A DNA stretch of 64,000 nucleotides from a virus. A program made the translations under genes and the position numbers. Shown here in pieces: positions 1,882 through 46,398 of this stretch (positions are counted from its first letter, which is position 1; the number at the start of each line of letters is the position of its first letter). The notes beneath the pieces were generated by a model, which was not told the DNA's origin, ran no database searches, and was given only the letters and a program-made list of their open reading frames with translations. Where the stretch lies: the IMG/VR virus record IMGVR_UViG_3300027327_000001; one strand, given 5' to 3'.

Positions 1882-2696
1882 TGAATTTAGGGCCGGTGTT
1901 CCGTAGTTACCTATTTGTATCTAGCCCGTAGCGGCCTGTAACTCGACGCTGGGGCATGCCTGAACTTTTTGATACCAAACTACCTAAGTAGGCTTGTATG
2001 CCCTGGGAGCGATTCTAAGCGGCGCTGCATGCCCTCACCGATTTTCGGCACTTGTGGCTAAAAGCGAGAATCGCGCTTGGATTCGACGCTGACTCGACCA
2101 CTCGACTCGACGAACCGGCGGCCACGCGACGGCGATTGAGCGATGCCTTGCCAGCTGGTCGAGTGCTCTTGCCCTGGCAGTGCTTGGCAGTGCCTTGAAC
2201 GAGTGCAGGGCGGCCCGTCAAGCAGTGCTTGCCAGCCGTCGAGGGCTTGCCTGCATGGACTTGGCAGGCGCGCCTGGCGCTGCTCGCAATCGACCTGCGA
2301 TGCACTGGCTACCGGCGATCGCGCGCCTTGCCTAGCAGCGCCTGAAGCGGCCGCCGGCGGCCGCTACTCGACGGCGATTCGACGGCGAATCCGTCCACCG
2401 GCGGCCACTCGAATCGACTGCGAATCGACCTGATTCGGCCCGTCGAATAGGCGCGCTGATTCGGAGCGCGCGGCAGCTGTCGAGTGCGATTGCCAGTGCC
2501 GCGGCTAGCTACCGGCGGCGCCGGAATAGTCCCCAGCGGCCATAGGGCGGCCATAGAGCATCATTGCGCATGATTCCGGTGTATCCCACTGCATAGCGAC
2601 TAGGCGCGCTCTAGGGTAGCTCTGTAGGCTTGTCCGGCGAAAAGAAAAAAACTTTGTCGGAATCAAAAATATGTGCCGATTTTGTGCAATTAGTGC

Positions 2697-2725
2697 TTGC
2701 AGGGTAACCGCATATCCGATATACG
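2697..2725 (+). promoter_or_regulatory. candidate sigma70-like promoter of the early operon
   Basis: TTGCAG (2697-2702), 17 nt, then TATACG (2720-2725), about 35 nt upstream of the first early gene. Confidence 0.3.
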
Positions 2726-2758
2726 GGAGTCCACATTGACATATCGGAGACAAGCTAA

Positions 2759-3031
2759 ATGACCAAAACAGACAACCTGGACGCGAAATTGCAACTTGCT
2801 TTTCAGCGCCTGCAAGCCGCGCAAGACAACCTTGAAAACCTGCATGATGAGCTTGCCAAGTGCGGTCACGCGATAGACTCTTGGGCGATGCATGTAGGCG
2901 ATCAATCGAGTGTGCAAGCGGGCCGCGAAATATGGGCTAGCCTGACTCCTATGCAAGATGCCCTGCAAAAGCTTGCTATCGTCAACCGCAAATTTTCAAG
3001 CGCACTCGACACTTTCCAAGATCGCTCTTGA
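2759..3031 (+). CDS. hypothetical helical protein
   Basis: The ORF track gives 90 aa. A GGAGA SD lies 8 nt upstream of the ATG. This is the first gene of the early operon. Confidence 0.65.
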   Translation: MTKTDNLDAKLQLAFQRLQAAQDNLENLHDELAKCGHAIDSWAMHVGDQSSVQAGREIWASLTPMQDALQKLAIVNRKFSSALDTFQDRS

Positions 3032-3108
3032 GTCCCGCTTCACCGGCCGCCGTGCGCGGCCGGATTACCGGCACTCAACCGGACAACCAGATCAAGGAGA
3101 CAGAAAAA
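3032..3108 (+). promoter_or_regulatory. early intergenic cassette copy A (GC hairpin + ACCGG..ACCGG box + SD)
   Basis: cgcttcaCCGGCCGCcgtgcGCGGCCGGattACCGGcactcaACCGGAcaaccagatcAAGGAGA. Confidence 0.8.
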
Positions 3109-3468
3109 ATGACCAAATTACAGATTGAATTTTCAATGCTCAAATTCGCGGTGTGGGGACTGCCGCGCGTATCAATGGCGTCGATTGAAGGCGTCGATTG
3201 CGGCTATCTGTTTAACGAGCCGGGCGGCGATTGCGTATTGCCGTGCGAGAGCTTGAAGCGCATTGCAGGCGATCACAAATACCCGCCTGATTACTACAGC
3301 GCCAAGTGTTCGGCCCGTGCCGCCTGGAATACGTTGAGCGCTCGCGAGCAGTGCTATCGGCTGATGCGATCGGGAAGTTCGGCACTGGCAGACATTGCCC
3401 TGCAGTGGCTGGTCGATAACGGCCGCGATGATATTTTCGACGATATTTCACGCGAATTTGGCAACTAG
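3109..3468 (+). CDS. hypothetical protein
   Basis: ATG at 3109 (MTKLQIEF...) follows the cassette SD. The ORF-track frame 3028.. merely reads through the cassette. Confidence 0.65.
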   Translation: MTKLQIEFSMLKFAVWGLPRVSMASIEGVDCGYLFNEPGGDCVLPCESLKRIAGDHKYPPDYYSAKCSARAAWNTLSAREQCYRLMRSGSSALADIALQWLVDNGRDDIFDDISREFGN

Positions 3469-3548
3469 TGTTTCGCTTCACCGGCCGCCGCGCGCGGCCG
3501 GATTACCGGCACACTGAACCGGAAAACCAGTCAAGGAGACTAAACGAG
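3469..3548 (+). promoter_or_regulatory. early intergenic cassette copy B
   Basis: cgcttcaCCGGCCGCcgcgcGCGGCCGGattACCGGcacactgaACCGGAaaaccagtcAAGGAGA. Confidence 0.8.
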
Positions 3549-3980
3549 ATGACCAGAATAGCATATTGGACATATAACAGTGATACGCATTGCGGCCATT
3601 GCGCGCACAAGATTTTCAGCGCGCAATCTCTCTTTGAAGGAACAGCCGTAGACTCCGAAGATAATCCGGTTGTGCCCATGTTCGAACATGAAGATCATCA
3701 TCCCGACGGAGTCCATTGCGGGACCTGTTCAGAGGAATTGATGCCGTCGAGATTCCCCGGATTCATCGCTTTGAATGATCCCTACATGCAGGAGCTTATC
3801 AACGGATCCGATTGCCGCGAGTCCGCATACGCGGCCGCGCAAAAAGCAGTCAAAAAATTTCAGTATCTCGACGAGAAACTTGAAGAGCATCGGAATTACG
3901 ACTGGGACGAGAATCACGACGATTTAACCGCGACTCTCGACTGGATCGACGCATACGAGCACGCGGCGCAATCGCTCTAG
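3549..3980 (+). CDS. hypothetical Cys/His-rich (zinc-binding-like) acidic protein
   Basis: MTRIAYWTYNSDTHCGHCAHK...HCGTCSEE contains CxxC pairs. The ATG follows the cassette SD. Confidence 0.65.
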   Translation: MTRIAYWTYNSDTHCGHCAHKIFSAQSLFEGTAVDSEDNPVVPMFEHEDHHPDGVHCGTCSEELMPSRFPGFIALNDPYMQELINGSDCRESAYAAAQKAVKKFQYLDEKLEEHRNYDWDENHDDLTATLDWIDAYEHAAQSL

Positions 3981-4054
3981 TGTCCCGCTTTTCGCGCCTC
4001 AAGCGAGGCGCGATTACCGGCACATTCGACCGGACAACTGATAGGAGCTTGAAC
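3981..4054 (+). promoter_or_regulatory. early intergenic cassette copy C
   Basis: cgcttttCGCGCCTCaagcGAGGCGCGattACCGGcacattcgACCGGAcaactgatAGGAG. Confidence 0.8.
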
Positions 4055-4426
4055 ATGATAACCGCAATAAATGAAGCCAGTTTTGACTATCCGCAATCCT
4101 TGAGCCTGACTTTTTCATCGCCTCAGAAAATCGGCCGCGCTACCGTTATCCGCGTGTGTATCGACGTTGAAGGCGATCATTGCATAGTGGGCAATATCTA
4201 CCGCTTGCGCGATACTGGCGCGTTGCGCCTGACTCCCAGCGTCTCGGATATGGTTGGCAACGCGGCATATGGTCACACGGATTTTGCCCGCGCGCGCCGC
4301 GCGATAATCGAAAAGTGGGACGTGATGACGCTGGTTGAGCGCGCCGCGACACTCCTTGAGTGCGACGACTCCCGCGTCAAAAGAGCCGCTATGGACGTAT
4401 GCAGGGACTGCATGACCGACTCCTAA
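4055..4426 (+). CDS. hypothetical protein, paralog family 1
   Basis: MITAINEAS... The C-terminal region FARARRAIIEKWDVMTLVERAATLLEC resembles the products of 4518..4838 and 6212..6610. Confidence 0.65.
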   Translation: MITAINEASFDYPQSLSLTFSSPQKIGRATVIRVCIDVEGDHCIVGNIYRLRDTGALRLTPSVSDMVGNAAYGHTDFARARRAIIEKWDVMTLVERAATLLECDDSRVKRAAMDVCRDCMTDS

Positions 4427-4517
4427 AGGCGAAACCCGGCGCCGCCTGGCGCCGGTTCTAGCGCGCCTGGCGCCGCGCTACTGATGAGCCTAGCCAAGAG
4501 ATAAAGGAGACTCGACA

Positions 4518-4838
4518 ATGACCACATTCAGCCTGCACTTCACGCCTGTATTTTGCGATAGGCGCGACGGATCAAAAAGTTGCGACTTGATGATCGCGGG
4601 CCACAGCGTCGGCGCTCTAGTGCAGGAGCGCGGCGGCCATATCGACGCGACAATTGGAGTCGATGATCTGTTTGTAATGGATCGCTATGATAGCTTCACA
4701 GCGGCCCGCATGGCTATTCGTGAGCAGTGGCACGCGATGAGCATAGCCAATCGCGCGCGTGTGCTTCTCGACTGCAAGGTTTCCGCATTGCGAGAATTGG
4801 CAATCGACTACCACAGCGGCAATCTTTGCAGCTGCTAG
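4518..4838 (+). CDS. hypothetical protein, paralog family 1
   Basis: An AAGGAGA SD is present. FTAARMAIREQWHAMSIANRARVLLDC aligns with the 4055 and 6212 products. Confidence 0.65.
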   Translation: MTTFSLHFTPVFCDRRDGSKSCDLMIAGHSVGALVQERGGHIDATIGVDDLFVMDRYDSFTAARMAIREQWHAMSIANRARVLLDCKVSALRELAIDYHSGNLCSC

Positions 4839-4914
4839 AGCATCGCTTATCGGGCCGCCGCGTGCGGCCCGAAGACCGGCGCTTTAACCGGAAAACCAGA
4901 TAGGAGATAGGCAC
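4839..4914 (+). promoter_or_regulatory. early intergenic cassette copy D
   Basis: cgcttatCGGGCCGCcgcgtGCGGCCCGaagACCGGcgctttaACCGGAaaaccagatAGGAGA. Confidence 0.8.
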
Positions 4915-5262
4915 ATGAAAATCGAACCTGTAACCACTAAATCCGTAATGTCGCCTGGGGGTAGCATGACGCATGAGTCGGAATACCTATTCCCGGCTGA
5001 TGATTATGGACGGGCCGCGCTCAAAACTTTCGTCAATAGCGCCGCGCGAAAGCGAGCGCACTTTTACGCGCTGTCCGGTGTTCAGCCGCGCGTAATCGGT
5101 AGCGATGATCAAGTCTATCCCGCATTTGAAACTATCAACTTGGGCCGCCGTCAATGGACGGAATTAGCGACTAAGATTCTCACTTCGAAGTTTCGCCGGC
5201 CGCACGCGTTGCGCGTGCGCATGGTCGAGACTCAACTTTCTGTGCATGTATTCATGAACTAG
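4915..5262 (+). CDS. hypothetical protein
   Basis: ORF track, 115 aa, following the cassette SD. Confidence 0.6.
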   Translation: MKIEPVTTKSVMSPGGSMTHESEYLFPADDYGRAALKTFVNSAARKRAHFYALSGVQPRVIGSDDQVYPAFETINLGRRQWTELATKILTSKFRRPHALRVRMVETQLSVHVFMN

Positions 5263-5340
5263 TGCGTCGCTTATCGGGCCGCCGCGTGCGGCCCGAATAC
5301 CGGCACATTCGACCCGGAAAACCAGATAGGAGATTACCGA
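5263..5340 (+). promoter_or_regulatory. early intergenic cassette copy E
   Basis: cgcttatCGGGCCGCcgcgtGCGGCCCGaatACCGGcacattcgACCCGGAaaaccagatAGGAGA. The hairpin is identical to that of copy D. Confidence 0.8.
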
Positions 5341-5625
5341 ATGACCACACTGCAGCAAAAATTCGATAGGGTTTTTAGCCCTGGAGTGCCCACAAAATCG
5401 CGCGTCGAGGCGATGAACGATACCGCGATCGCGGCACTAGTGAATGAGCATGAAGGCGATGACGCGGCGCAACTGGCAGCTGCTGAAAGCGCGTGGGATA
5501 CGCTGGAGTCGAGACTTGACGATATGGACGAGTCGACTTTCGATTACGAGTTTGTCCTTGAAGACTATTACGAAGTTGAGGCGCTGATCAACGCTTTGGA
5601 TAGCCGCATTGCGCTTGACGGCTAG
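5341..5625 (+). CDS. hypothetical strongly acidic protein
   Basis: 94 aa and rich in D/E (…ESRLDDMDESTFDYEFVLEDYYEVE…). Confidence 0.6.
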   Translation: MTTLQQKFDRVFSPGVPTKSRVEAMNDTAIAALVNEHEGDDAAQLAAAESAWDTLESRLDDMDESTFDYEFVLEDYYEVEALINALDSRIALDG

Positions 5626-5700
5626 AGCATCGATCTTGGGGCGGCTGCGGCCGCCCATTGACCGGCGCTTTGACCGGATAACTCGATAGGAGAATCAAAA
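5626..5700 (+). promoter_or_regulatory. early intergenic cassette copy F
   Basis: GGGGCGGCtgcGGCCGCCCattgACCGGcgctttgACCGGAtaactcgatAGGAGA. Confidence 0.75.
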
Positions 5701-6117
5701 ATGAAACTGAAATTGTGCCCTGAAAATGGGAAGAAAATTGCGGCTGCGCTCGCAACTGTCAATGGCGGTTCGCACACGCACACATTCACTATGGGATCGC
5801 AAATTTCGCAGGAAATAGCTGAAGAGGCGGAGTCACGCCTCAGAAAATTCGGACTGTGTAACTCTAAGCGCCGCGGCGCGATAGTGATCGGCCAAAGCGG
5901 TTCGATACTGCCAAGCAGTTACGGATATCCAGCGCGCACAACAACAGTCACTTTGTATCGCGGCGTGCGCGACTGGTTCATTACGGATATTTCCGAGTCG
6001 TCGCTCTATCCCAAGACTCGACCTGTATTCCGAATCGGATTGCATGAATACCAGATTGAGAGCGCGCAAGAATCGATGCGCGCCGCGCTGGGGATCGCCG
6101 ATATTAGCGCGTCATAG
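5701..6117 (+). CDS. hypothetical protein, paralog family 2
   Basis: 138 aa. It shares its layout with 10095..10514 and 10511..10933: MK(L/I)..., ...RL..FGL..., then ...W(F/Y)(I/L)T(D/R)... Confidence 0.65.
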   Translation: MKLKLCPENGKKIAAALATVNGGSHTHTFTMGSQISQEIAEEAESRLRKFGLCNSKRRGAIVIGQSGSILPSSYGYPARTTTVTLYRGVRDWFITDISESSLYPKTRPVFRIGLHEYQIESAQESMRAALGIADISAS

Positions 6118-6211
6118 AGAGCATCAAGGCGGCGGCCATGCGGCCGCCGTCTTCCAGTCGCGCGGATTAGTGGCCGCGCCTGATGAGCAACGCGAAACTG
6201 GATAGGACAAA
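6118..6211 (+). promoter_or_regulatory. variant intergenic region with two GC hairpins and no ACCGG box
   Basis: GGCGGCGGCCatGCGGCCGCCG followed by GCGCGGattagtggCCGCGC. Confidence 0.6.
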
Positions 6212-6610
6212 ATGACAAGATTCAACCTGCAGTTCGGCGATATTCGCCTACTGGAAAATGGCAACGAGATTATGCCAGTGGCTATCGACTCCGTCGAAAT
6301 TGGCCGCTTGATCAAGTGGCCGAACAGTTGCGTAATTCTCGAAAGTGGTGAATTGGCGCGCGTGCTGGGGCCTGAGGAGCGCAGCAATACCTTGCGCCAC
6401 TGTCTCGACTGGCAAGACGCTAAGGCGCGCTCTAGGCACTCCTGGGAGGCTATGAAAGAGCTTGAAAGAGCCGGTAGACTACTCGACGACGAAAGATATT
6501 ACGTCAAGGAGATCGGCAAGAATTTGCTTGCCGAAAGTATGATGCGCAACGGCGGCTGCACGTCGCAAGCGGCCGGCCGCGCGCTGTTGGATATCGTGTT
6601 GACGGATTAG
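6212..6610 (+). CDS. hypothetical protein, paralog family 1
   Basis: 132 aa. AKARSRHSWEAMKELERAGRLLDDE aligns with the 4055 and 4518 products. Confidence 0.6.
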   Translation: MTRFNLQFGDIRLLENGNEIMPVAIDSVEIGRLIKWPNSCVILESGELARVLGPEERSNTLRHCLDWQDAKARSRHSWEAMKELERAGRLLDDERYYVKEIGKNLLAESMMRNGGCTSQAAGRALLDIVLTD

Positions 6611-6682
6611 AGTATCGACTTTCCGGCCGCCGTGCGCGGCCGGATTGCCGGCACTTTCGACCGGACTACAGGAGATACGAGA
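6611..6682 (+). promoter_or_regulatory. early intergenic cassette copy H
   Basis: tCCGGCCGCcgtgcGCGGCCGGattgCCGGcactttcgACCGGActacAGGAGA. Confidence 0.8.
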
Positions 6683-7243
6683 ATGACAAGCAAATTTACG
6701 TTCACTTTCGCGGACGTTTACGATTGGATCGTTGCCGGCCGCGAATGGGCCGGCATGACCGGTAGCGAGGCGGCCGGCAATGCGGCAAGCGAATGGGCCG
6801 ATGAAAAGTATTCGGAATTTTGCCGCTACGGGCCGTCGCAAGACTTTGAAGACTGGATGCGCACAACCCATTTGCAAGACATTAACGGCATTGCAGCGTG
6901 GGCCGCCGATGCCGCTTTAGCTCAAGCGGATAGGGACGGCCGCTATTGGCCGTCGCAAGATCTTGTTCGAGAAAAATTTGAACAAGTCTTTGCCGATCGC
7001 GTCAATGTCGTCGACAGTTTTTGCCGTCGAGTCGTCGAATTGGCGCCAGAAATTGACGTGCAATATGCGTTCAAATATGAGCGCGACGCACTTGATAATT
7101 GCGACTCGATGCATGCCGTATATCGCGCTATCGGCAAATCTCTTTTGGTCACTCGCACGCATTGGCACGTTCTTCGAGTGCGCCAAGAACTCGAGGAGCT
7201 GGAAGAATTTGGCGACATACAGGATCGTCCTCAAGTCGCTTGA
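6683..7243 (+). CDS. hypothetical protein
   Basis: ATG at 6683 (MTSKFTFTFADVYDW...) follows the cassette SD. 186 aa. Confidence 0.65.
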   Translation: MTSKFTFTFADVYDWIVAGREWAGMTGSEAAGNAASEWADEKYSEFCRYGPSQDFEDWMRTTHLQDINGIAAWAADAALAQADRDGRYWPSQDLVREKFEQVFADRVNVVDSFCRRVVELAPEIDVQYAFKYERDALDNCDSMHAVYRAIGKSLLVTRTHWHVLRVRQELEELEEFGDIQDRPQVA

Positions 7244-7314
7244 GTCTCGCTTTCTGGACGGCTGCGGCCGTCCAGTTACCGGGACTCACCGGACAACAGA
7301 TAGGAGACTCGACA
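7244..7314 (+). promoter_or_regulatory. early intergenic cassette copy I
   Basis: CTGGACGGCtgcGGCCGTCCAGttACCGGgactcACCGGAcaacagatAGGAGA. Confidence 0.8.
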
Positions 7315-7566
7315 ATGAACAATATCGACCTGCACAACGTCAAGGCGGCCGAACTGATAAACTCTCAATGGATGGATGAGCACAAGAAAATCATAGCGGC
7401 GGCCGTCCTGGACGTTACCGAGAAGCGCCTTGCGCAAATGCCTATTCCGATAGCGACGTTCGACCACCGAGGATTTAGGCCGGCGATCAATGACGGCGGC
7501 CGCTACAGGGATCATTTGGACGATAAAATTATCCTGAACGCCTTCATTCGCGACTTGAATAGCTAG
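7315..7566 (+). CDS. hypothetical protein
   Basis: ATG at 7315 (MNNIDLHNVK...) follows the cassette SD. 83 aa. Confidence 0.6.
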   Translation: MNNIDLHNVKAAELINSQWMDEHKKIIAAAVLDVTEKRLAQMPIPIATFDHRGFRPAINDGGRYRDHLDDKIILNAFIRDLNS

Positions 7567-7646
7567 CGACTCTCGACCGGTAGGCATTGCTAGCCAGTGC
7601 CTACCAGCCGGAAGTTGAGCCGGAAAACCCAATCGGAGAACTGACA
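7567..7646 (+). promoter_or_regulatory. early intergenic cassette copy J (diverged: GCCGG..GCCGG)
   Basis: GGTAGGCAttgctagccagTGCCTACCagCCGGaagttgagCCGGAaaacccaatcGGAGA. Confidence 0.65.
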
Positions 7647-7862
7647 ATGACCAAAGCACAGATGCAGGACGAATTGAAAAAGCGCAATTGGTTCGTCGAC
7701 CGCAATCCGTATCGAAATTGGCGCTGGTGTGTCTATCGAACTGAATTTTCCGCGATAGGCGAAAAGCAAATTATTTTGTGTGAGAGCAACGGCCATAGAA
7801 CGCGATTGGCGGCGGTCGAGAACGCCATAGAACGCGGGTTCGGCGATGGCGTTGCCTGGTAA
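7647..7862 (+). CDS. hypothetical protein
   Basis: ATG at 7647 (MTKAQMQDELKKRNWF...). 71 aa. Confidence 0.6.
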   Translation: MTKAQMQDELKKRNWFVDRNPYRNWRWCVYRTEFSAIGEKQIILCESNGHRTRLAAVENAIERGFGDGVAW

Positions 7863-7941
7863 TCGACTCCCGCTCTTAGGGCCGCTTATGCGGCCCGTAG
7901 ACCGGTAGTTGAACCGGAAAAACCAAATAGGAGAATGAGCA
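7863..7941 (+). promoter_or_regulatory. early intergenic cassette copy K
   Basis: GGGCCGCttatGCGGCCCgtagACCGGtagttgaACCGGAaaaaccaaatAGGAGA. Confidence 0.8.
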
Positions 7942-8382
7942 ATGACATTGCAACTAACAGAAAACTTGAGCGCAATTTTTGAGCGCGCAAAAACGGGAAT
8001 CGCGGCCGATTTTGCCGGTAAAGTTACCGGCGATGATACGGGAAATTTTGACTGGAAATGTGCCGACGCATGGGCGAATTTTGCGCCCGGTGAAGCGCCT
8101 CCGACGTTGGAATACGCCAACGGAATCGAAAGATTCGAGTTTGCCGACGGAAGCGCGATCGTCGCTGATTGCTTGACTTGGGAATACGGATTCAATGGCG
8201 ATGATTGCAGCGACAAGGAATTGATCGCGGCCGTTGTGGATGCGGAAAAAAGTTTCGCAGCGTTCATCGGCGAAACATATCCGGCGAAACGCGATCCGAA
8301 CGAATATTGGCCGGATAGCGAATTTACGGAAGGCGATCCCGCGTTCACCTTCCCGACGTTTTTGTGGCCCGCGTTCGGCTAG
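7942..8382 (+). CDS. hypothetical protein with an RFxFxDGS-type domain
   Basis: 146 aa. IERFEFADGSAIVADCLTWEYGFNG resembles the repeated domain in the 35449..37047 proteins. Confidence 0.65.
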   Translation: MTLQLTENLSAIFERAKTGIAADFAGKVTGDDTGNFDWKCADAWANFAPGEAPPTLEYANGIERFEFADGSAIVADCLTWEYGFNGDDCSDKELIAAVVDAEKSFAAFIGETYPAKRDPNEYWPDSEFTEGDPAFTFPTFLWPAFG

Positions 8383-8396
8383 TGGATGGATGACGC

Positions 8397-8426
8397 TTGC
8401 GCGTAACCGCAAAAGCATGGTAGAAT
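8397..8426 (+). promoter_or_regulatory. candidate internal sigma70-like promoter with extended -10
   Basis: TTGCGC (8397-8402), 18 nt, then tgg-TAGAAT (8421-8426). This junction lacks the hairpin/ACCGG cassette. Confidence 0.4.
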
Positions 8427-8451
8427 GAACCGAATCATAGGAGACTCAAAC

Positions 8452-8790
8452 ATGACCACAGAAATTCCGGCACTCAAACTCAACGATAAGACGATGCAGG
8501 ATGAAGTTAACGCGGCGCCAACGCTGTATGAGAAAATCGACGCGGCGGCCGGCAAGCTTTGGCAAGTGGATGCTAAAGCGCATGAATGCACGGGCGCGCT
8601 GGAGTCAGCGCTTAGCGAAGATTTTGCGAGTATCGAAGCGTATCTAGTCGAACTGGAAAATATGCAGGAACCGCGGTTTTTGGATGCGGTTATCCAGTCC
8701 GTAACGGACAACTTCGGCGAATATGTCACGTCCGAATGTATGCCAGAAATAAGAATATTCGTCGCCAAAGTTACCGAACACGAGCTTTAG
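8452..8790 (+). CDS. hypothetical acidic protein
   Basis: ATG at 8452 (MTTEIPALKLND...) follows an AGGAGA SD. 112 aa. Confidence 0.6.
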   Translation: MTTEIPALKLNDKTMQDEVNAAPTLYEKIDAAAGKLWQVDAKAHECTGALESALSEDFASIEAYLVELENMQEPRFLDAVIQSVTDNFGEYVTSECMPEIRIFVAKVTEHEL

Positions 8791-8863
8791 AATCTCGCTT
8801 TTCGGGCCGTTGCGGCGGCCCGATTACCGGGACTCTACCGGATGAAGGAAAAGGAAACAGAAA
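8791..8863 (+). promoter_or_regulatory. early intergenic cassette copy L
   Basis: cgcttttCGGGCCGttgcggCGGCCCGattACCGGgactctACCGGAtgaAGGAAAAGGAAA. Confidence 0.8.
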
Positions 8864-9331
8864 ATGGAATTGATTAAAATATCGCTGAATGACGAAATCG
8901 CTACCCGATTGATAAACGAAAAGGATGATCTCGACGAGCGCATTGAAAAGGTGAAGGAAATTCAAGACTCCATGCTAAGAGAAATTGAAGATATGGAGTG
9001 CGACGAAGATCCGCGCTTTGACGCGCTGGATCAAGATTTGTCATGGATTGGTGATTACCTGATCGAACTGCGAGCCGTCGAGTCCTATTGGAAGGCGCTT
9101 CAAGCCAATAGCGACTTCCGGCCATGCCATTTTCCGGGCCCGCTTGCGCGCGTGCAAGGCGAACAGCGCGACAGCGACGGCGACGCAAACGTTTTCGACG
9201 TGCTAGTTGAAGCGGACAATTACGAGTCGGCGAAAAAGGCGGCCGATGAGTTTCTTCGCTACAGTTCCGATGCGAATATCTGCTACCAGTGCAGCGACTG
9301 CACAGAAATTATTGTGACGCTCTACAACTAG
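8864..9331 (+). CDS. hypothetical acidic protein
   Basis: 155 aa and D/E-rich in the N-terminal half. A C-terminal CxxCxxC is present (CYQCSDC). Confidence 0.6.
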   Translation: MELIKISLNDEIATRLINEKDDLDERIEKVKEIQDSMLREIEDMECDEDPRFDALDQDLSWIGDYLIELRAVESYWKALQANSDFRPCHFPGPLARVQGEQRDSDGDANVFDVLVEADNYESAKKAADEFLRYSSDANICYQCSDCTEIIVTLYN

Positions 9332-9402
9332 AATCTCGCTTTCCTTGCCGCGCGCGGCAAGGTTACCGGGATTTTCCGGACAACAACTAGGAGACTGAAA
9401 AA
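9332..9402 (+). promoter_or_regulatory. early intergenic cassette copy M
   Basis: cgctttCCTTGCCGCgcGCGGCAAGGttACCGGgattttCCGGAcaacaactAGGAGA. Confidence 0.8.
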
Positions 9403-10038
9403 ATGACCAAATTTCGCAAGCAATTGAAAGTCGATAAATCGCTTTTTCGCGCTGTCCGCAATGGACTTGACGGCAAGCACACGCGCCCGGCATTCAACGG
9501 GATCCATGTAGCTTCAGACGCTTCCCGACTGACATTGACAACCACAAATGGCGCAATGTGCATGATAGGAACACAAATTTGGACTGGGGAAGACGACTCG
9601 GACAACTGGGGCGATCTTCCCGCGAAAGGAGTCATACTTCCGAACAGAACTTGCCGCCGCGTCAAAAAGGGAAAGCCTGGTGACATTATCGAGATCGAAA
9701 TTAACAGCCTGGAAAATGGGGCCGGCAATTTCGAAATCTTGGATGGTCGATACACTTCCTACAGCGACGTTTTGACGGATTACCCGTTCCCGCCTGTTCA
9801 ACAGGTTATGCCGCGCTCGTTCGCGCCACAGGATGAATTTGGCTTGGGCGGCGAAGTGCTTGCCAGATTGAGCGCGGCCGGCAAGGAATTCGCGCGCGCC
9901 TATACGCGCTTGCGCTTCGAAGCGCCAGACGAGTCGGAAGACGGAATCCCGAAAAACAAAATCATGGTGGACTACTACCGAATTTCGGAAGGCAGATTCG
10001 AGCTGGAATTGCAGGCATTCGCGATGCCAGTTCGCTAA
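9403..10038 (+). CDS. putative DNA polymerase III beta (sliding clamp)-like protein
   Basis: TRPAFNGIHVASDASRLTLTTTNGAMCMI resembles the DnaN N-terminal motif (R..L.GV.....L...ATDG.R). GRYTSYSDVLTDYPFPPVQQVMP resembles the DnaN FPDY..V.P inter-domain motif. At 211 aa it is shorter than a full clamp. Confidence 0.4.
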   Translation: MTKFRKQLKVDKSLFRAVRNGLDGKHTRPAFNGIHVASDASRLTLTTTNGAMCMIGTQIWTGEDDSDNWGDLPAKGVILPNRTCRRVKKGKPGDIIEIEINSLENGAGNFEILDGRYTSYSDVLTDYPFPPVQQVMPRSFAPQDEFGLGGEVLARLSAAGKEFARAYTRLRFEAPDESEDGIPKNKIMVDYYRISEGRFELELQAFAMPVR

Positions 10039-10094
10039 TGAATTAGCAACGCGGGCGGCGGTTCCGTCGCCCGCGCCAACCTAAGGAAAAGAAA

Positions 10095-10514
10095 ATGAAA
10101 ATCGAAGTTTTGGACAAAAACAAGGATGAAATTTACGAGGCTTTAGCCCCGGTTCGTCGGGCCGCTAGTGGCGATGATTTAGGCTATTTTGAAAAGGTTC
10201 GTAGCGAGATTAGATACGCGGACGAACGCCTTGAGCAATTTGGCCTGATCGGATCGGTAATTAGCTGCGATTGCCGCCTTCACCTGGAAACCGGCAATAT
10301 ACATTTTCGCGCGCCAAGAAAGGCAATGACGGTCGAGATAACGCGCGATTATGGCCGCTGGTATTTAACGGACGTTTTCGAGTCCGTCCAACAACCGGAC
10401 ACATGGCCGAAGCGCGACATTCTGATCACAAAAAAGCAATACGATTTTTCGATTGAGCAATTGACGCATGACCTAGGAATCGTCGTGGTCGATGAAAAGG
10501 AGGATTCAAAGTGA
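10095..10514 (+). CDS. hypothetical protein, paralog family 2
   Basis: 139 aa. It aligns with the 5701 and 10511 products (…ERLEQFGLIG…DCRLH…RWYLTDVFES…). Confidence 0.65.
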   Translation: MKIEVLDKNKDEIYEALAPVRRAASGDDLGYFEKVRSEIRYADERLEQFGLIGSVISCDCRLHLETGNIHFRAPRKAMTVEITRDYGRWYLTDVFESVQQPDTWPKRDILITKKQYDFSIEQLTHDLGIVVVDEKEDSK

Positions 10515-10933
10515 AAATAAATCTAAAAGACAAAGGCGCCATTGGAAGCGCATTGATCAAAAACTGGAACGAGGGAGAATACAACGTTAGAGTCTGGGGC
10601 GTTTATGAACTCCGTGACATGGTAGAAGACGCAGATCAAAAACTGGACGAACTCGGACTTATTGATCTTGATCGGAAGCACGGCCGCGATTGCGATTGCC
10701 GCCTAGTCGCTCAATGCTGCACTGGCGCGCATTTCGGCGGCAATAATAGGATCGTTCAAAAGGTTACGATAAAGCGCGAAAAATATACCTGGTTTCTAAC
10801 GCGGATAGAAGCTTCGGAGCTTCCGAACGGCCAATGGCCGCAATTCAAAATTTTCCTTAGCCAAGCGCAAATCGACAGAGCGCAAAAAATGCTTCTCGAA
10901 CACCTGAAAATATTTGTGGACGGAACCGAATGA
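10511..10933 (+). CDS. hypothetical protein, paralog family 2
   Basis: The GTG start overlaps the upstream TGA (GTGA). 140 aa (…QKLDELGLID…DCRLV…TWFLTRIEAS…). Confidence 0.65.
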   Translation: MKINLKDKGAIGSALIKNWNEGEYNVRVWGVYELRDMVEDADQKLDELGLIDLDRKHGRDCDCRLVAQCCTGAHFGGNNRIVQKVTIKREKYTWFLTRIEASELPNGQWPQFKIFLSQAQIDRAQKMLLEHLKIFVDGTE

Positions 10934-11008
10934 TCGTCGCTTTGGGAACCGGTTCGCCGGTTCCTGAACCGGCGATTATGCCGGACAACTGATTACAGGA
11001 GACTAAAA
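10934..11008 (+). promoter_or_regulatory. early intergenic cassette copy N
   Basis: cgctttGGGAACCGGttcgCCGGTTCCtgaACCGGcgattatgCCGGAcaactgattacAGGAGA. Confidence 0.75.
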
Positions 11009-11200
11009 ATGCAAATGACCAAAGCCTTGAACTTGAACGCGATCGCGGTTCCCTATCAACCGCTTATGGCGGATCGCCTTGCCGAACTCGAATTGCTGCA
11101 TGAATTTGGCTTTGCCAGTCGTCGAGACGTGAAGGAGCTCAAGCATCTTCAGGGGCTTACTCGGACGATTGAGAGAGAGCAGGAAGAATCCTACCACTAA
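11009..11200 (+). CDS. hypothetical small protein
   Basis: 63 aa, following the cassette SD. Confidence 0.55.
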   Translation: MQMTKALNLNAIAVPYQPLMADRLAELELLHEFGFASRRDVKELKHLQGLTRTIEREQEESYH

Positions 11201-11279
11201 TAGCAAGTGCCGCTTTCCGGGCCGCTTAGGCGGCCCGTCGACCGGCGCTTTGACCGGAAAACCCATAGGAGAACTGAAA
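11201..11279 (+). promoter_or_regulatory. early intergenic cassette copy O
   Basis: cgctttCCGGGCCGCttagGCGGCCCGtcgACCGGcgctttgACCGGAaaacccatAGGAGA. Confidence 0.8.
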
Positions 11280-11654
11280 ATGACGCAAGAAATTATGCTT
11301 GGTGACTATCTGCTTATCGGACAAGACATTGAGGATCTCATTGAACGCCTGGAAGACGTTCGCGACGATCCGGAAAGCCGCGACTTGGACGAGGACGAAC
11401 AAAACCAGTTGGACATATGGACGAAATTCAAAAACGAGTGCGAAGGCTGTGATGATATCGGGCACATTATTTTTCGCCGTGAAGATACGTTCGCGGACTA
11501 TTGCAAAGAACTTGCAATAGATATGGGAGCAATTACCGGTGACGAAAAATGGCCGCTTAATTGCATAGACTGGGAAAAGGCGGCTAGAGAAGAAAGGCAT
11601 AGCTACTTTGAAATAGAAGTTAACGGACACGAATACCTTTACTTTGCCGAATAA
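11280..11654 (+). CDS. putative ArdA-like antirestriction protein (single domain)
   Basis: The N-terminus is acidic. HIIFRREDTFADYCKELAIDMGAITGDEKWPLNCIDWEKAAREERHSYFEIEVNGHEYLY aligns by eye with the ArdA C-terminal domain (IIIHSD..YDVARYYIEETGALGE....YIDY..YGRDL......G.F). Confidence 0.45.
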   Translation: MTQEIMLGDYLLIGQDIEDLIERLEDVRDDPESRDLDEDEQNQLDIWTKFKNECEGCDDIGHIIFRREDTFADYCKELAIDMGAITGDEKWPLNCIDWEKAAREERHSYFEIEVNGHEYLYFAE

Positions 11655-11717
11655 TCGGCGATGGAACCCGGCGGCTGCTCAAGCGGCCGCCGTTGCAACT
11701 CAAACGGAGACTCAAAA

Positions 11718-12344
11718 ATGACCAAGCCAACAATCGAAGTCGAGATACCTTTTGCCGGATTCTATTATTCAGTGCATGACTCGGCGATGGATACGCATTT
11801 AGAGGTATTTTGCGACGATGACGAAGACGAAATTGAAAGCGCTTTTCGGTCGATAGACTGGCACAAGGCGAATGAGCTTTACGCCAAATTTTATTTCGAC
11901 CAATTCCTACAGGATTTTTTGCCGCGGCTTATCGACGCGGACTCGTCGCCGGCGATTGAATACGGCCACAGATGGCAGCCGGCCGAATACAATTTCGCGA
12001 CGGATCGAATATTCGGAGTCGTCAATGCGGACGTGTTCGAACGCATGTTTGAGCAGTGCGATCGCGCCGCGCTTGACGCGGAAGCAAAGCGACTGTTTAC
12101 CAGCGGGCCGGGCTTTATGAGCTTCTATAGCCCGCGCATGGCTGATTGGCCGGCCGATAGGTCTGCTTGGGACGTTAACCAAAATTCCGCCGTCCTCTAT
12201 GGATGGCTTCGAACCTTCGGCGGTTCGGATTGGCTGCAAGAGTTTCAAGCATGGGAGATGGATTTTTTCTATCTCGATTGCATATCCGACAATCTGGATG
12301 AGATTTTCGGATCCGCCGGCCTGAACTTCGAACGCGCCAACTAG
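11718..12344 (+). CDS. hypothetical protein (resembles plasmid leading-region or anti-restriction-neighbourhood proteins)
   Basis: ATG at 11718 (MTKPTIEVEIPFAGFYYSVHDSAMD...). A QPAEYNFATDRIFG motif is present. 208 aa. Confidence 0.6.
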   Translation: MTKPTIEVEIPFAGFYYSVHDSAMDTHLEVFCDDDEDEIESAFRSIDWHKANELYAKFYFDQFLQDFLPRLIDADSSPAIEYGHRWQPAEYNFATDRIFGVVNADVFERMFEQCDRAALDAEAKRLFTSGPGFMSFYSPRMADWPADRSAWDVNQNSAVLYGWLRTFGGSDWLQEFQAWEMDFFYLDCISDNLDEIFGSAGLNFERAN

Positions 12345-12425
12345 CCGCTGAAGAGGGCGGCGCCGGCAAGCGCCGCCCGAAACTCCGATACGGAGTCCGG
12401 CAATCTTGCCAAAAAGGAACTGAGA

Positions 12426-13103
12426 ATGAGAACGATAGAAACGAAAGTTTACGCCTATTCCGAGTTGTCGGAAAAGGCGCAAAAGGTAGCGAAGAATTGG
12501 CTTTGCGAAGATGTCTTAGGGAATGATGATGATTGTTGGAACGATCCCGCGATTGACACCTTCAAGCAGGTTTCCGCGGCGCTTGGAATTGAGCTATTCG
12601 ACGACGAAAAGACCGGACGCGAATCCGTTCACTACAGACTAAATTTCATGTCGGACGATGGCGCTTTTTTCACCGGCGATTACTCCTACAAGGCAGGTAG
12701 TGTTGGAGCGATCCAGAAATTCAATGACGGCGAACTTACGCGAATTGCCAAGGATCTATATTCCCTTCAGTGCCAGTTCGGAAGAGAATTGACAGCGGAA
12801 ATTAGGGTTGTCGACGTCGGCACAATTATCACGATGGGCGATGACGAATACGAAAATTTGATTATGAAGGTCAAGGGACAAAGCACGTTTGGAAAGTCCG
12901 TCACAGTGCATTCCGGGCGCTCGTATGGCAACGTCGAAAGCGCGTTAAAGGTGTTGATGGGCGATCTTGCCAATTGGCTTTTCGAGCAGATTAGAGAAGC
13001 AAATCATTACTATTACAGCGAGGAAAACACTGTGATTCTTATGGAATTGAACGGCTACGAATTCCTTGCCGATGGCCGAGTCTTTTGGGAAGGTAGCCAG
13101 TAG
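12426..13103 (+). CDS. hypothetical protein
   Basis: 225 aa: MRTIETKVYAYSELSEKAQKVAKNWL ... MELNGYEFLADGRVF. The SD is AAGGAA. Confidence 0.6.
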   Translation: MRTIETKVYAYSELSEKAQKVAKNWLCEDVLGNDDDCWNDPAIDTFKQVSAALGIELFDDEKTGRESVHYRLNFMSDDGAFFTGDYSYKAGSVGAIQKFNDGELTRIAKDLYSLQCQFGRELTAEIRVVDVGTIITMGDDEYENLIMKVKGQSTFGKSVTVHSGRSYGNVESALKVLMGDLANWLFEQIREANHYYYSEENTVILMELNGYEFLADGRVFWEGSQ

Positions 13104-13318
13104 TGGCGCCGCTGGATCGCGCATTAACACGCTTTTTCGCAGCGCTCGGAGCCGCTGGTGTGCTGGCATGGGAAGGATTCACCGACGACAGTTCGGCGGC
13201 GTTCGTATTCGCCGCCGCCCTGCTTCTCTACGCGCTTCCTGGGCTTGTTGTCGCGCTCTTGAGCCTAGCGAGCCATACCAGCGACGATGAGACTAGGAAG
13301 CCAAAGCGGAAGCGCTGA
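13103..13318 (+). CDS. small membrane protein (two predicted TM segments)
   Basis: The GTG start overlaps the upstream TAG. Hydrophobic stretches are FFAALGAAGVLAW and AAFVFAAALLLYALPGLVVALLSLA, followed by a basic tail. Confidence 0.5.
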   Translation: MAPLDRALTRFFAALGAAGVLAWEGFTDDSSAAFVFAAALLLYALPGLVVALLSLASHTSDDETRKPKRKR

Positions 13319-13337
13319 AGGCTATCGCAGACAACGG

Positions 13338-13366
13338 AAAAGGCGGCCATGTGCCGCCTTTTTTCA
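13338..13366. terminator. intrinsic terminator between convergent operons
   Basis: aaAGGCGGCcatgtGCCGCCTtttttc. It has a T-run on plus and an A-run upstream, so it is usable on both strands. Confidence 0.75.
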
Positions 13367-13534
13367 TATCAAGCCTTCTTCGTAGGCAAAATCTTCTCTT
13401 ACGAATAGGATCAAATGATCGCGATGGGCTATCTCGCTATGCGGCACAAAAAGGATCTCCTGGTCGATCCGGACAAGCAGGCCTTTCGGCGTTTCCCGCT
13501 GCACTTCGTCAATGTTGATCTCGACTTCATTCAC
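13364..13534 (-). CDS. hypothetical small protein (56 aa, below the ORF-track cutoff)
   Basis: The GTG at 13534 overlaps the TGA of the upstream gene (GTGA). Hand translation: (M)NEVEINIDEVQRETPKGLLVRIDQEILFVPHSEIAHRDHLILFVREDFAYEEGLI. Confidence 0.4.
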   Translation of the reverse strand: MNEVEINIDEVQRETPKGLLVRIDQEILFVPHSEIAHRDHLILFVREDFAYEEGLI

Positions 13535-13962
13535 CGCTTGATTCCTTTCTTTGGGTAGGCGATCGCCTTGGCCGCTGGATCGTAGCGGCCGTTGAAAATA
13601 AATTCAATGCACTGCAAGGCGGTTCCGTCTCGAACCATGCGAGACGATACCCGGAGCACTTTAAATCCTAGCAAGATAGCTTCCGCGGCGCGCCTGCAAT
13701 CGTAGTCGATGCCGTCGACGCGCTGGTGACTGCCTGGCTTGCCGTATTTCGCGCCGTCAATCTCGACCAGCAACTTGGGGCCGGCCCGGAGCTTGGCATG
13801 AAGCGTTTCGCGATCCAAATTTTTGCCCAGCACGCTTTCGTAATCTCGAACCAAAAAATCGGCCCGAAAATTCTTCCGCGGATGAAATTGGTATTGCCGT
13901 TCGTAGTAGAATTTGGTCGCGTGCTTCAATTGGAATTCAAGCTCGTCTTCGTTTTTGCTCAT
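13531..13962 (-). CDS. DUF559/Vsr-like endonuclease-fold protein
   Basis: FRADFLV...LLVEIDGAKYGKPGSHQRVDGIDYDCRRAAEAILLGFKVLRV matches the ADF..VE.DG..H....D..R...L..G..VLR pattern of Vsr/DUF559 PD-(D/E)xK proteins. It lies in the same operon as a C5 MTase. Confidence 0.55.
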   Translation of the reverse strand: MSKNEDELEFQLKHATKFYYERQYQFHPRKNFRADFLVRDYESVLGKNLDRETLHAKLRAGPKLLVEIDGAKYGKPGSHQRVDGIDYDCRRAAEAILLGFKVLRVSSRMVRDGTALQCIEFIFNGRYDPAAKAIAYPKKGIKR

Positions 13963-14260: not shown

Positions 14261-14283
14261 GGATGGCGCCAGCCGTTCTAAAA
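14261..14283. repeat. sixth copy of the 23-bp repeat, on the other side of the tRNA
   Basis: A perfect GGATGGCGCCAGCCGTTCTAAAA that overlaps the TAG stop of the C5 MTase gene. Confidence 0.9.
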
Positions 14284-15690
14284 TTTTTGGGCCGGCGGCG
14301 CATCCTCATCTTTTTTTTGCGCAATAGGAATTCCATGCTTGCTCCAAACTTCATCCATGAGCTTGATTCGATGGCCGAGCCAGTTCATGCAATTTACGGC
14401 CATCGAGTTGCCGAGAATCGCGTAGCGCCTGGTCTTGGGCATTGGCTTGCCGCGGTGCTCGACAAGCGTGTAGTTGTCGGGGAATCCGAAAAGCCGCTCG
14501 ACTTCAAGAGGCGTGAGCTTGCGGACAACGTAACCGTCCGTGATGGCGATATAGCCTTGGCCGGGAGCTCCGCCGGGCTTGTTGATTGACGGCGTTATCT
14601 CGCCGTCGCCACCGGCAAGCCGCACGTGTCCCTGCTGGTTCTGCGCGAACGCCACGGCCTGCGGCGGATTGCCCGTGTCGATGGTTCCACTAACGCCCTC
14701 CCACGCGCCGAAGCTCGATTGCCTTGCCTGGAATGCGACTGCCTGAGGATGCCCGGTTTGACACGTGTAAGCGGCTTCGTCTTCGCGCCAGCCATTGCCG
14801 TTCGGAGAGGATTTGGGATTGGTTCTATCCGCCTTTTCATGGATGGCGACGACCTTCTGCACGATTAGGTGACCTTCCCGCCCTCTCTTGTCCGCCTTCA
14901 TATGTCCCACAATTGCGGGGGAAACGGGTTGGCATGCAGTTTCTTGGCACTCGTCTTCTGCCGGACCGCCGCCGCCTTTCGCCGACTGCGCCGTGACCGC
15001 TTCGCAGACTCCAGGCTCTGCGACTCCGTCGCCCGCTTCAAGCCCGCTATTTTCCTCAGAACCGTATCCAAGAAACCCGGCAGTTTCCTGCCTTCTTTTT
15101 CTGCGCGGTGGATGATGCCTCTGCATGCTCTCCCGCTCAAATAATACTCCCGCAGGTGCTCGCCAGTCACTTCCAAGACATCCAACAACGAAGACACGCC
15201 GTCGCTGCTGGGGGACGGCACGAGGGTGTGATTGAACTCGGATATATTGAGAGTCGAAGATTCTGTAGCTGAGACTATACCCGCATTTAACCATCGCCCC
15301 GAGGATGGTTCCAAACGCCCGTCCTCCGTCCATTGACAGGAGTCCGGGGACATTTTCCCACAAAAACCATCTTGGTTGTAGTCGAGAAAGAATTTCCACA
15401 TAGGTGAGTGATAGGTTGCCACGCGGGTCATCCAGGCCACCGCGTCCTCCTGCGATGGAGTAGGACTGGCAGGGGGTTCCTCCAACAAGAACGTCAATTG
15501 ATTTTCGGTCATCCGACAGCCTTTCTAAAAGAGTAGTCATGTCGCCGTAGTTCGGGACGTCGGGATAGTAGTGATTTAGCAGCGAGCAGCAATGCGGATC
15601 CACTTCGGCAAAGAATTGCGGCTCCCAGCCAAGCGGTTCCCATGCGACGGTAGCTGCCTCTATCCCAGAGCAGACGGAGCCGTATTTCAT
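14278..15690 (-). CDS. dcm: DNA (cytosine-5) methyltransferase
   Basis: Motif I is GSVCSGIEA, motif IV GGTPCQSYS, motif VI WENVPGLLS and motif VIII PQQRRRVFVVG. Motif IX is RKLTPLEVERLFGFPDNYT and motif X RYAILGNSMAVN. Confidence 0.9.
   Translation of the reverse strand: MKYGSVCSGIEAATVAWEPLGWEPQFFAEVDPHCCSLLNHYYPDVPNYGDMTTLLERLSDDRKSIDVLVGGTPCQSYSIAGGRGGLDDPRGNLSLTYVEILSRLQPRWFLWENVPGLLSMDGGRAFGTILGAMVKCGYSLSYRIFDSQYIRVQSHPRAVPQQRRRVFVVGCLGSDWRAPAGVLFERESMQRHHPPRRKRRQETAGFLGYGSEENSGLEAGDGVAEPGVCEAVTAQSAKGGGGPAEDECQETACQPVSPAIVGHMKADKRGREGHLIVQKVVAIHEKADRTNPKSSPNGNGWREDEAAYTCQTGHPQAVAFQARQSSFGAWEGVSGTIDTGNPPQAVAFAQNQQGHVRLAGGDGEITPSINKPGGAPGQGYIAITDGYVVRKLTPLEVERLFGFPDNYTLVEHRGKPMPKTRRYAILGNSMAVNCMNWLGHRIKLMDEVWSKHGIPIAQKKDEDAPPAQKF
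14898..15512 (-). CDS. nested alternative-frame ORF (204 codons) inside the C5 MTase gene; coding status uncertain
   Basis: This same-strand ORF overlaps MTase motifs IV-VIII. Its translation is protein-like (…CQWTEDGRLEPSSGRWLNAG…TLNISEF…SSLLDVLEVTGEHLREYYLSGRACRGIIHRAEKEGRKLP…). See findings. Confidence 0.3.
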   Translation of the reverse strand: MTENQLTFLLEEPPASPTPSQEDAVAWMTRVATYHSPMWKFFLDYNQDGFCGKMSPDSCQWTEDGRLEPSSGRWLNAGIVSATESSTLNISEFNHTLVPSPSSDGVSSLLDVLEVTGEHLREYYLSGRACRGIIHRAEKEGRKLPGFLDTVLRKIAGLKRATESQSLESAKRSRRSRRKAAAVRQKTSAKKLHANPFPPQLWDI

Positions 15691-16228: not shown

Positions 16229-16229
16229 G

Positions 16230-16496: not shown

Positions 16497-16497
16497 G

Positions 16498-16758: not shown

Positions 16759-16759
16759 G

Positions 16760-29626: not shown

Positions 29627-29717
29627 GACAACCGAATTGCGTTTTAGAGACCTAAACGCGACAGTCGTTCAGCTTGGCCACAAAATTGACGACGTTACAT
29701 CGGATGACGACGAATGA
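29544..29717 (+). CDS. hypothetical small coiled-coil protein (57 aa, below the ORF-track cutoff)
   Basis: Hand translation: MTKRERLRLKESMQEICRQLDVMRVEAKTTELRFRDLNATVVQLGHKIDDVTSDDDE. Its TGA overlaps the ATG of the MTase (ATGA). Confidence 0.35.
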   Translation: MTKRERLRLKESMQEICRQLDVMRVEAKTTELRFRDLNATVVQLGHKIDDVTSDDDE

Positions 29718-46390: not shown

Positions 46391-46398
46391 TTCGCTTC

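Follow-up and report, generated by a model that had tools for sequence, protein, structure and literature searches.

The early operon of the phage represented by IMG/VR virus record IMGVR_UViG_3300027327_000001, analysed here as one window of 64,000 nucleotides (nt; position 1 is its first letter), carries the same cassette at 14 junctions between small genes. The cassette is an RNA-level, sense-strand feature: its transcript folds into one composite hairpin, in which a lower stem at the stop codon of the upstream gene encloses an upper GC stem. Two other junctions of the operon are occupied by hammerhead-type ribozymes. On the basis of the fold, its geometry and these ribozymes, we propose, with roughly even confidence, that the cassettes are sites of intercistronic cleavage and stabilisation, probably cut by RNase III of the host.

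One composite hairpin at fourteen junctions

The motif ACCGG-N7-13-CCGGA occurs 15 times in the window, compared with 1.1 occurrences expected from shuffled sequences, and 12 of the 15 are plus-strand junction copies located between 3.0 and 11.3 kilobases (kb). We aligned the 14 junction copies with three orthologous copies from the relative L027, a contig described below (n = 17). A covariance model built from the aligned copies identified exactly 14 plus-strand sites in the 64 kb (45.8-77.1 bits) and no further ones, either in the window or in the ~10 kb of the genome outside it. A preliminary description of this DNA had counted about 14 copies and proposed such a scan of the rest of the genome, which returned the known sites and no others; its statement that the junctions are consecutive does not hold, as the series is broken at junctions 4424, 6115, 8380 and 10036. 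All 14 cassettes lie on the plus strand, each starting at the stop codon of the upstream gene (start coordinates in Table 1) and followed by the Shine-Dalgarno sequence of the next.

As determined by comparative folding, the lower stem of about 9 base pairs (bp) joins alignment columns 7-15 (stop codon and YCG) to columns 49-57 (the CGG of the first ACCGG box and the next 5-6 nt). It begins at the upstream stop codon or at most 5 nt from it; the codon is in or adjoins the 5′ strand of the stem in all copies, and is inside it in most. The conserved core comprises the YCG:CGG end of this stem, a C·C mismatch at columns 16:48 (A·C in three copies) and a U-A pair at 17:47 (C-G in two copies). A small variable 2x2 loop separates the core from the upper GC stem, which has about 9 bp and is closed by an apical loop (3-5 nt) that is not conserved among the copies. 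The composite fold is the minimum-energy structure of each of the 17 copies taken singly, with z-scores of -3.0 to -6.0 and stabilities of -23 to -32 kcal/mol, and RNAalifold recovered the lower stem without prior structure. In the predicted folds the Shine-Dalgarno sequence is unpaired.

Both stems bear compensated changes. In the lower stem 92% of the cells are paired (slid controls 32-48%) and five of nine pairs show two-sided changes; for the upper stem the values are 93% and eight of nine, which bears out the earlier observation that base-pairing of the hairpin is preserved between copies. Fifteen lower-stem and 14 upper-stem haplotypes occur in 17 combinations (copies 4 and 6 have the lower stem but not the upper in common, copies 4 and 5 the upper but not the lower); the stems have therefore been compensated independently, and pairing was kept through many independent changes. 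Comparison with the L027 orthologues adds compensated changes at 11:53 and 7:57. On the reverse strand of the cassette sites the model scores 12-27 bits, compared with 46-77 bits on the plus strand, and two lower-stem positions are occupied most often by a G·U wobble (in 11 of the 17 copies at each), where the opposite strand would have A·C mismatches. It is this strand asymmetry, together with the wobbles, that identifies the cassette as a feature of RNA.

The preliminary description had divided the cassette into four parts: the stop codon with a CGCTT box, a GC hairpin, a double ACCGG box and the Shine-Dalgarno region. Hairpin and boxes are confirmed, and the lower stem had been missed. The CGCTT box and the first ACCGG box are opposite sides of one conserved core, not separate signals. 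Since the lower stem pairs the bases between the two ACCGG boxes with the stop-codon region, these bases are no spacer and ACCGG..ACCGG is no single element; the first box and the bases following it constitute the 3′ strand of the lower stem. What had been called an unrecognised element is thus half resolved, its first half being a stem strand and its second half being accounted for only indirectly (below). A general lesson for genome scans is that what look like sequence boxes on either side of a hairpin may be paired with each other as an outer helix.

Two-turn geometry, hammerheads and the proposed cleavage

Nearly all copies have 22 nt in each strand of the composite stem (21-24 overall), which corresponds to two helical turns, and the conserved interruption is found at a constant 13th position from the apical loop (about 12-13 nt). 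RNase III substrates usually comprise two helical turns, and internal loops limit cutting to one strand, so that protective 3′ hairpins are left (PMC1540722). Folded in the same way, the five early RNase III signals of phage T7 (R0.3, R0.5, R1, R1.1 and R1.3) have an upper stem (9-13 bp) closed by a 3-5-nt loop and resting directly on an internal loop, under which a lower stem of 4-9 bp follows; each strand comprises 18-25 nt in all, and the five copies have sequence in common with one another. On the map of Dunn and Studier the T7 signals are reportedly cut about 13 nt from the apical loop, in the 3′ strand at the internal loop; the equivalent position in the cassette would be the A-C of the first ACCGG.

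Like the T7 signals, the cassettes are sense-strand hairpins between cistrons of an early polycistronic transcript, with an upper stem of about 9-10 bp, a small loop, an interruption directly beneath and a lower stem, together about two turns long. In both phages the copies share sequence and have no U-tract, and the upstream mRNA product is expected to end in a hairpin (PMC1540722). Four features are novel with respect to T7: the dense spacing (14 copies in 8 kb, compared with five in the T7 early region), the anchoring of the lower stem at the stop codon, the extra hairpin-capable and invariant CCGGA box downstream, and the mixing with hammerheads. The conserved part also differs, being the top of the lower stem with the C·C mismatch here, and the upper stem with the 3′ loop in T7. 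There is no sequence similarity between the two sets; the likeness is one of predicted fold. In two-turn stem, internal interruption and intercistronic place on the sense strand the cassettes agree with T7-type RNase III signals, and we would class them as structural candidates rather than as proven members. A further parallel may exist in Bacillus phage SP82, whose early-mRNA sites, as Panganiban and Whiteley reportedly found in 1983, are cut by B. subtilis RNase III; these, too, are said to be repeated, sequence-conserved hairpin processing sites in early transcripts, although in another host group and in smaller number.

The two ribozymes lie in slots equivalent to those of the cassettes. 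Directly after the stop codon at 4424-4426, a type II hammerhead has an intact core (CUGAUGAG and CGAAAC) and a predicted cleavage site after C4458 (GUUC^U). In the type III hammerhead-like element at 6152-6203 the GUC, CUGAUGAG and CGAAAC core is likewise intact, cleavage is predicted after C6159 (GUC^G), and the Rfam score lies below gathering because stem II is minimal. This element belongs to junction 6115, where a GC hairpin is present and both the lower-stem 3′ strand and the second box are absent; the ribozyme fills their slot. At both hammerheads a hairpin would be left just upstream of the predicted cut, and the downstream fragment would start directly with stem I. Five junctions had earlier been described as carrying a hairpin only. 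For 10039-10094, 11655-11717 and 12345-12425 we find hairpins and no cassette, as claimed, whereas 4427-4517 and 6118-6211 contain the hammerheads. The 14 cassettes themselves fall outside the hammerhead definition (three stems, a CUGAUGA ... GAAA catalytic core and NUH at the cleavage site), with no Rfam match even at E<=10 in a 101-nt search (3020-3120), and sensitive scans of 2400-13600 and 3020-3120 for other Rfam self-cleaving ribozymes yielded the hammerheads and chance-level matches only.

Hammerheads are known to flank single genes in prophages, where their arrays cut transcripts of ~2 kb in vitro and have been proposed to process them to gene-length mRNAs (PMC3088659). The operon studied here resembles the prophage arrays of Perreault et al. 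2011 (PMC3088659) in having putative cleavage elements at successive junctions of a long phage transcript, two of them of hammerhead type, but most of its junctions carry a non-ribozyme hairpin. The presence of hammerheads in equivalent slots argues that cutting, and not structure alone, is selected. We know of no prior description of hammerheads and non-ribozyme hairpins mixed in one operon, and the role of self-cleaving ribozymes in bacteria and phages is, to our knowledge, largely unknown. Interchangeable slots for hammerheads and an RNase III-type hairpin would be natural evidence that both cut the early transcript into single-gene mRNAs. If true, this would be the first natural case of hammerheads and protein-nuclease sites serving as interchangeable modules, and would offer a direct test of what hammerheads do.

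The second CCGG box lies 0-4 nt after the stem, is invariant in the 14 copies of the window and occurs only at junctions that also have the first box. As long as the RNA is uncut, all 17 minimum-energy folds place the first CCGG within the lower stem. A plain model of two hairpins (GC hairpin plus CCGG:CCGG) was rejected on this ground, and the second hairpin is retained solely for RNA that has been cleaved or opened by a ribosome. When the folded RNA begins at the conserved core, as the putative downstream product would, the boxes pair with each other as a CCGG:CCGG hairpin of 4 bp at the 5′ end, with a probability of 0.65-1.0. The L027 orthologue of copy 11 has CCGA..TCGG in place of CCGG..CCGG and thereby keeps both the CCGG-box hairpin and the lower stem; because this is a single compensated event, a 5′ cap hairpin is put forward here conditionally. 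CCGG as a restriction or methylation signal was also considered and discarded: 437 CCGG are observed against 409 expected, neither depleted nor enriched.

The processing or stabilising role in mRNA that had been among the predicted functions is favoured by the covarying sense-strand fold, the T7-like two-turn geometry and the ribozymes in equivalent slots. A terminator scan detected no U-tract terminators at the junctions, where the cassette hairpins are followed by (A)ACCGGA(A/C)AAC, in agreement with the preliminary description; since such terminators are absent, we infer long transcripts from two promoters. According to our model, the two sigma70-like promoters would drive long early transcripts, and a helix-measuring double-strand endonuclease, most likely host RNase III, would cut them at the AC of the first ACCGG, where the conserved interruption lies some 12-13 nt below the apical loop. 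The interruption may confine the cut to the 3′ strand, as in T7. The upper hairpin would stay on the upstream mRNA and hold off 3′ exonucleases. As a weaker proposal, the freed first CCGG might pair with the second, so that the downstream mRNA would begin with a hairpin of 4 bp. This 5′ hairpin would shield the downstream message and leave its A-rich leader and AGGAGA Shine-Dalgarno sequence open. With the two hammerheads doing the same job in cis at two other junctions, the early transcript would be cut into single-gene mRNAs, each with a 3′ hairpin and a gained 5′ hairpin.

Several points weigh against this reading. The copies come from one phage and one relative, and shared ancestry inflates the covariation counts. 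In most copies the stop codon is inside the lower stem, so translating ribosomes must repeatedly open the structure. The T7 cut positions used for comparison are those attributed to the Dunn and Studier map, and the T7 RefSeq record annotates none. RNase III needs no conserved sequence, yet YCG:CGG, the C·C mismatch and the second CCGG are invariant, and they may point to a sequence-specific factor. Finally, the CCGG:CCGG hairpin depends on one compensated change, and palindromic CCGG pairs trivially.

If the model holds, 14 hairpin sites and two ribozymes within 8 kb would constitute a compact system that could reveal how phages adjust message stability and expression gene by gene among their many small early genes, and the cassette could serve as a natural insulator part in synthetic operons.

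Table 1 Junction elements and promoters of the early operon (window positions; bits, covariance-model score; z, single-sequence fold z-score)
Feature	Position	Strand	Evidence
Sigma70-like promoter at operon start, TTGCAG-N17-TATACG, GTAACCGCA in spacer	2697..2725	+	read from sequence
Cassette copy 1: stop codon, lower stem, C·C internal loop, upper GC hairpin, second CCGGA box	3029..3087	+	68.7 bits; z -3.1
Cassette copy 2	3466..3527	+	69.3 bits; z -3.0
Cassette copy 3	3978..4038	+	66.3 bits; z -5.8
Type II hammerhead ribozyme, directly after stop codon	4427..4499	+	Rfam RF02276, 44.8 bits (gathering score 37)
Cassette copy 4	4836..4896	+	77.1 bits; z -3.5
Cassette copy 5, second box ACCCGGA	5260..5322	+	67.3 bits; z -3.4
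Cassette copy 6	5623..5682	+	68.7 bits; z -3.3
GC hairpin after stop at 6115	6127..6150	+	predicted fold; 5′ flank TAGAGAGCATC cassette-like
Type III hammerhead-like ribozyme, minimal stem II	6152..6203	+	Rfam RF00008, 32.1 bits (below gathering score 48.5); local E 1.1e-5
Cassette copy 7, pair 17:47 C-G in place of U-A	6608..6669	+	70.5 bits; z -3.7
Cassette copy 8	7241..7297	+	72.3 bits; z -6.0
Cassette copy 9, most divergent: longer upper stem, GCCGG boxes	7564..7628	+	45.8 bits; z -3.6
Cassette copy 10	7860..7922	+	64.4 bits; z -5.7
Second sigma70-like promoter, TTGCGC-N18-TAGAAT, upstream TG, same GTAACCGCA spacer motif	8397..8426	+	read from sequence
Cassette copy 11, L027 orthologue with compensated changes in both stems	8788..8846	+	69.7 bits
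Cassette copy 12	9329..9384	+	65.0 bits; z -4.3
Junction GC hairpin without cassette features	10050..10075	+	predicted fold; no covariance-model match
Cassette copy 13, near-perfect 22-bp duplex with one C·C mismatch	10931..10989	+	67.3 bits; z -5.5
Cassette copy 14	11198..11262	+	67.3 bits; z -5.0
Junction GC hairpin without cassette features	11670..11691	+	predicted fold; 7.6-bit partial match only
Junction with three short hairpins, no cassette	12355..12410	+	predicted fold

Other explanations of the cassette

The cassette might act uncut, as a structural insulator that blocks 3′ exonucleases, isolates the next start and places the stop codon near the next Shine-Dalgarno sequence for re-initiation; each time a ribosome terminates and melts the lower stem, the two CCGG boxes would pair with each other. 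The position of the stop codon at the lower stem of every copy, the stability of the hairpins, the unpaired Shine-Dalgarno sequence and the plain GC hairpins at three other junctions are consistent with this idea. A simple barrier, however, needs neither a fixed 22 nt per strand nor a C·C interruption at a set distance from the loop, the upper hairpin alone would suffice, and the hammerheads in equivalent slots argue for cutting. We therefore consider an uncut insulator unlikely, though worth keeping in mind.

Somewhat more doubtful is a site for a sequence-specific RNA-binding protein or for a nuclease other than RNase III. The factor, made early by the phage or supplied by the host (RNase E, for instance), would read the repeated ACCGG as well as the YCG-C-U / A-C-CGG core. 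In its favour, adjacent stem positions change freely but the core and the second box do not, neither box is found without the other, and almost all early proteins are ORFans, among which such a factor could hide. The scanned proteins of the window contain no nuclease or RNA-binding domain, which led us to reject a phage-encoded RNase or RNA-binding protein recognisable among them, and the fixed length of two turns is more typical of a helix-measuring enzyme. For RNase E, the linker is not consistently AU-rich; neither such an AU-rich linker nor a CsrA-type GGA site fits consistently across the copies.

Rated slightly lower again is a two-state RNA switch gated by translation, in which terminating ribosomes would melt the lower stem and let the two CCGG boxes pair, whereas in untranslated RNA the two-turn stem would form and be cut; a dedicated factor may then read the conserved C·C core. 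Were this true, processing of the boundary or stabilisation of the neighbouring message would be set by the translation activity of the upstream gene.

An element acting at the level of DNA, namely a phage promoter or terminator-promoter unit, the operator of a regulator or a scaffold for gene-shuffling recombination, appears improbable. Repeated intergenic cassettes do play such roles in T4-type phages (PMC2839356), and an indel relative to L027 ends at junction elements: at position 1802 of the relative, junction 10036 is missing together with the paralogous gene pair 10095-10933, and the absent segment runs exactly from stop codon to next cassette. Yet the first box covaries with the stop-codon region, which is unexpected for a promoter or operator, and the G·U wobbles and strand asymmetry point to RNA. 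The box-to-box spacing varies between 10 and 14 nt, no promoter-like site or -10-like hexamer was found at any cassette, two conventional sigma70-like promoters are already available to the operon, the U-tract is missing, and the annotated genes include no integrase or recombinase family. The promoter or terminator-promoter role suggested in the preliminary description is not supported by these data. For its regulator-binding site the evidence favours neither side, and its recombination scaffold draws on the indel, a single case that could be a by-product; recombination at the cassette repeats as such a by-product is possible.

Least probable of all, to our mind, is a new class of self-cleaving ribozyme. 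The cassettes do share junction slots with two hammerheads, next to which several later ribozyme classes were found, and they match no Rfam family while their structure is conserved; but conserved unpaired nucleotides are very few (one C·C mismatch, next to a variable 2x2 loop), the apical loops are unconserved, and the outline is that of a plain interrupted duplex with no evident pseudoknot or multi-helix junction.

The cassettes were also compared with described elements. The early promoter-stem-loop (PeSL) cassettes of T4-type phages combine a strong sigma70 early promoter with an effective terminator stem-loop (PMC2839356, PMC4122927). They, too, are short conserved intergenic stem-loop cassettes repeated among small non-essential early genes and may mark indel boundaries, a point on which the one indel noted above bears as a single case; in contrast to them, the cassettes of this operon have no promoter hexamers or U-tract, and their conserved boxes are strands of an RNA helix. 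In Cluster K mycobacteriophages, a 13-bp start-associated sequence (SAS) overlaps the ribosome-binding site, and the extended elements (ESAS) are 17-bp inverted repeats whose arm differences speak against RNA pairing, so that a DNA-binding site was proposed (PMC3203893). Both systems are lineage-specific repeats in one orientation just upstream of non-structural gene starts, with an inverted repeat and a variable spacer; unlike SAS/ESAS, to which they bear no sequence resemblance, the cassettes show repeated compensation of arm differences and end 10-25 nt upstream of the ribosome-binding site instead of overlapping it.

Further candidates were discarded on structural grounds. Variable spacing and covariation speak against readings of the boxes as sigma54, extracytoplasmic-function sigma or response-regulator direct-repeat sites, and the U-tract that directly follows the GC-rich hairpin of an intrinsic terminator is missing. 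Integron attC sites are imperfect palindromes with RYYYAAC / GTTRRRY core sites and an integron integrase nearby, whereas the cassette stem bases (UAGAGC.../...GCUUU) have no such cores and no integrase is among the annotated genes. In a lambda-type nut site, boxA (CGCUCUUA) is single-stranded and precedes a boxB hairpin whose loop is conserved; in the cassette the CGCUU-like box either is base-paired or falls within the internal loop, and the apical loops are not conserved. N4-like hairpin promoters had been considered on account of a 3,065-residue open reading frame (ORF), which proved to be the tape measure protein of a siphovirus with lambda-like head genes.

Promoters, relatives and neighbouring genes

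Two sigma70-like promoters are recognisable in the operon. The exact 9-mer GTAACCGCA is found at only two places in the 64 kb, in the promoter at 2697-2725 and at 8403, and both promoters carry TTGC-NN-GTAACCGCA, which suggests an operator or a phage-specific promoter feature. The sigma70-like promoter that had been proposed for junction 8383-8451 is plausible by eye and is conserved, being identical in L027 (164-194), otherwise ~77% identical; a simple consensus scan did not list it.

L027, a contig of 2 kb with the three orthologous cassettes, is the sole relative that we found; the reads for this relative are those behind ERZ27241695 and ERZ23493692. Megablast gave no match among phages. 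Pattern scans of viral, genome and metagenome collections returned single matches per contig at about the estimated chance rate, none with the cassette structure, and a protein-based metagenome scan for relatives found nothing. Among 5.8 billion proteins, one of two early proteins had one homologue and the other none, and the closest helicase among cultured phages is 38.7% identical, indicating no close cultured relative. By these searches, the cassette is apparently specific to this lineage.

The window is part of a phage genome of ~75.3 kb. Copies of the phage from six samples (several metagenomes and one NCBI assembly) are 100% identical and therefore offer no polymorphisms; their contigs are from GCA_001753035.1, JGI 3300027951 and 3300002151, ERZ27241794, SRR8092709 and SRR6214543. 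The window has genes for the tape measure protein and for other parts of the tail and baseplate, as well as for a helicase, a primase, DNA methyltransferases and one tRNA-Asn, and outside it the genome of this siphovirus consists of a lambda-like head module. An alphaproteobacterial host is hinted at, no more, by the baseplate families phiJL001 Gp84 and BR0599.

In the early operon (2.7-13.1 kb), 22 small plus-strand genes form a run, and nearly all of them are ORFans. Diverged paralogue families are present: 5701-6117, 10095-10514 and 10511-10933 form one set, and 4055-4426/4518-4838 and 3109-3468/6212-6610 are further pairs, with 23-42% identity over the aligned parts. Genes have therefore been duplicated along with, or between, the junction elements. 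Public gene calls place the start of the second gene at a TTG at 3028 (146 residues), within cassette copy 1; the conserved AGGAGA-ATG layout argues for the ATG at 3109 (119 residues).

The tape measure protein (54095-63292, minus strand) has an unusual length of 3,065 residues, which implies a very long tail. The phage also encodes a C5 cytosine methyltransferase (14278-15690), a second large methyltransferase-like protein (29714-32209) and, next to the tail genes, a 2OG-Fe(II) oxygenase (45323-46408). At 15687-17026 on the minus strand, five paralogous genes for proteins of 86-91 residues lie in tandem, with mutual identities of 27-47% and no family assignment. Between the head module and the early operon, there is a region of 1.9 kb without long ORFs (853-2758), in which the palindrome GCACTCGACG-N-GAGTGC is present four times (1336-1959) and a TTTGTTC iteron four or five times (1594-1890). 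This region may represent an origin, a cos site or a regulatory region.

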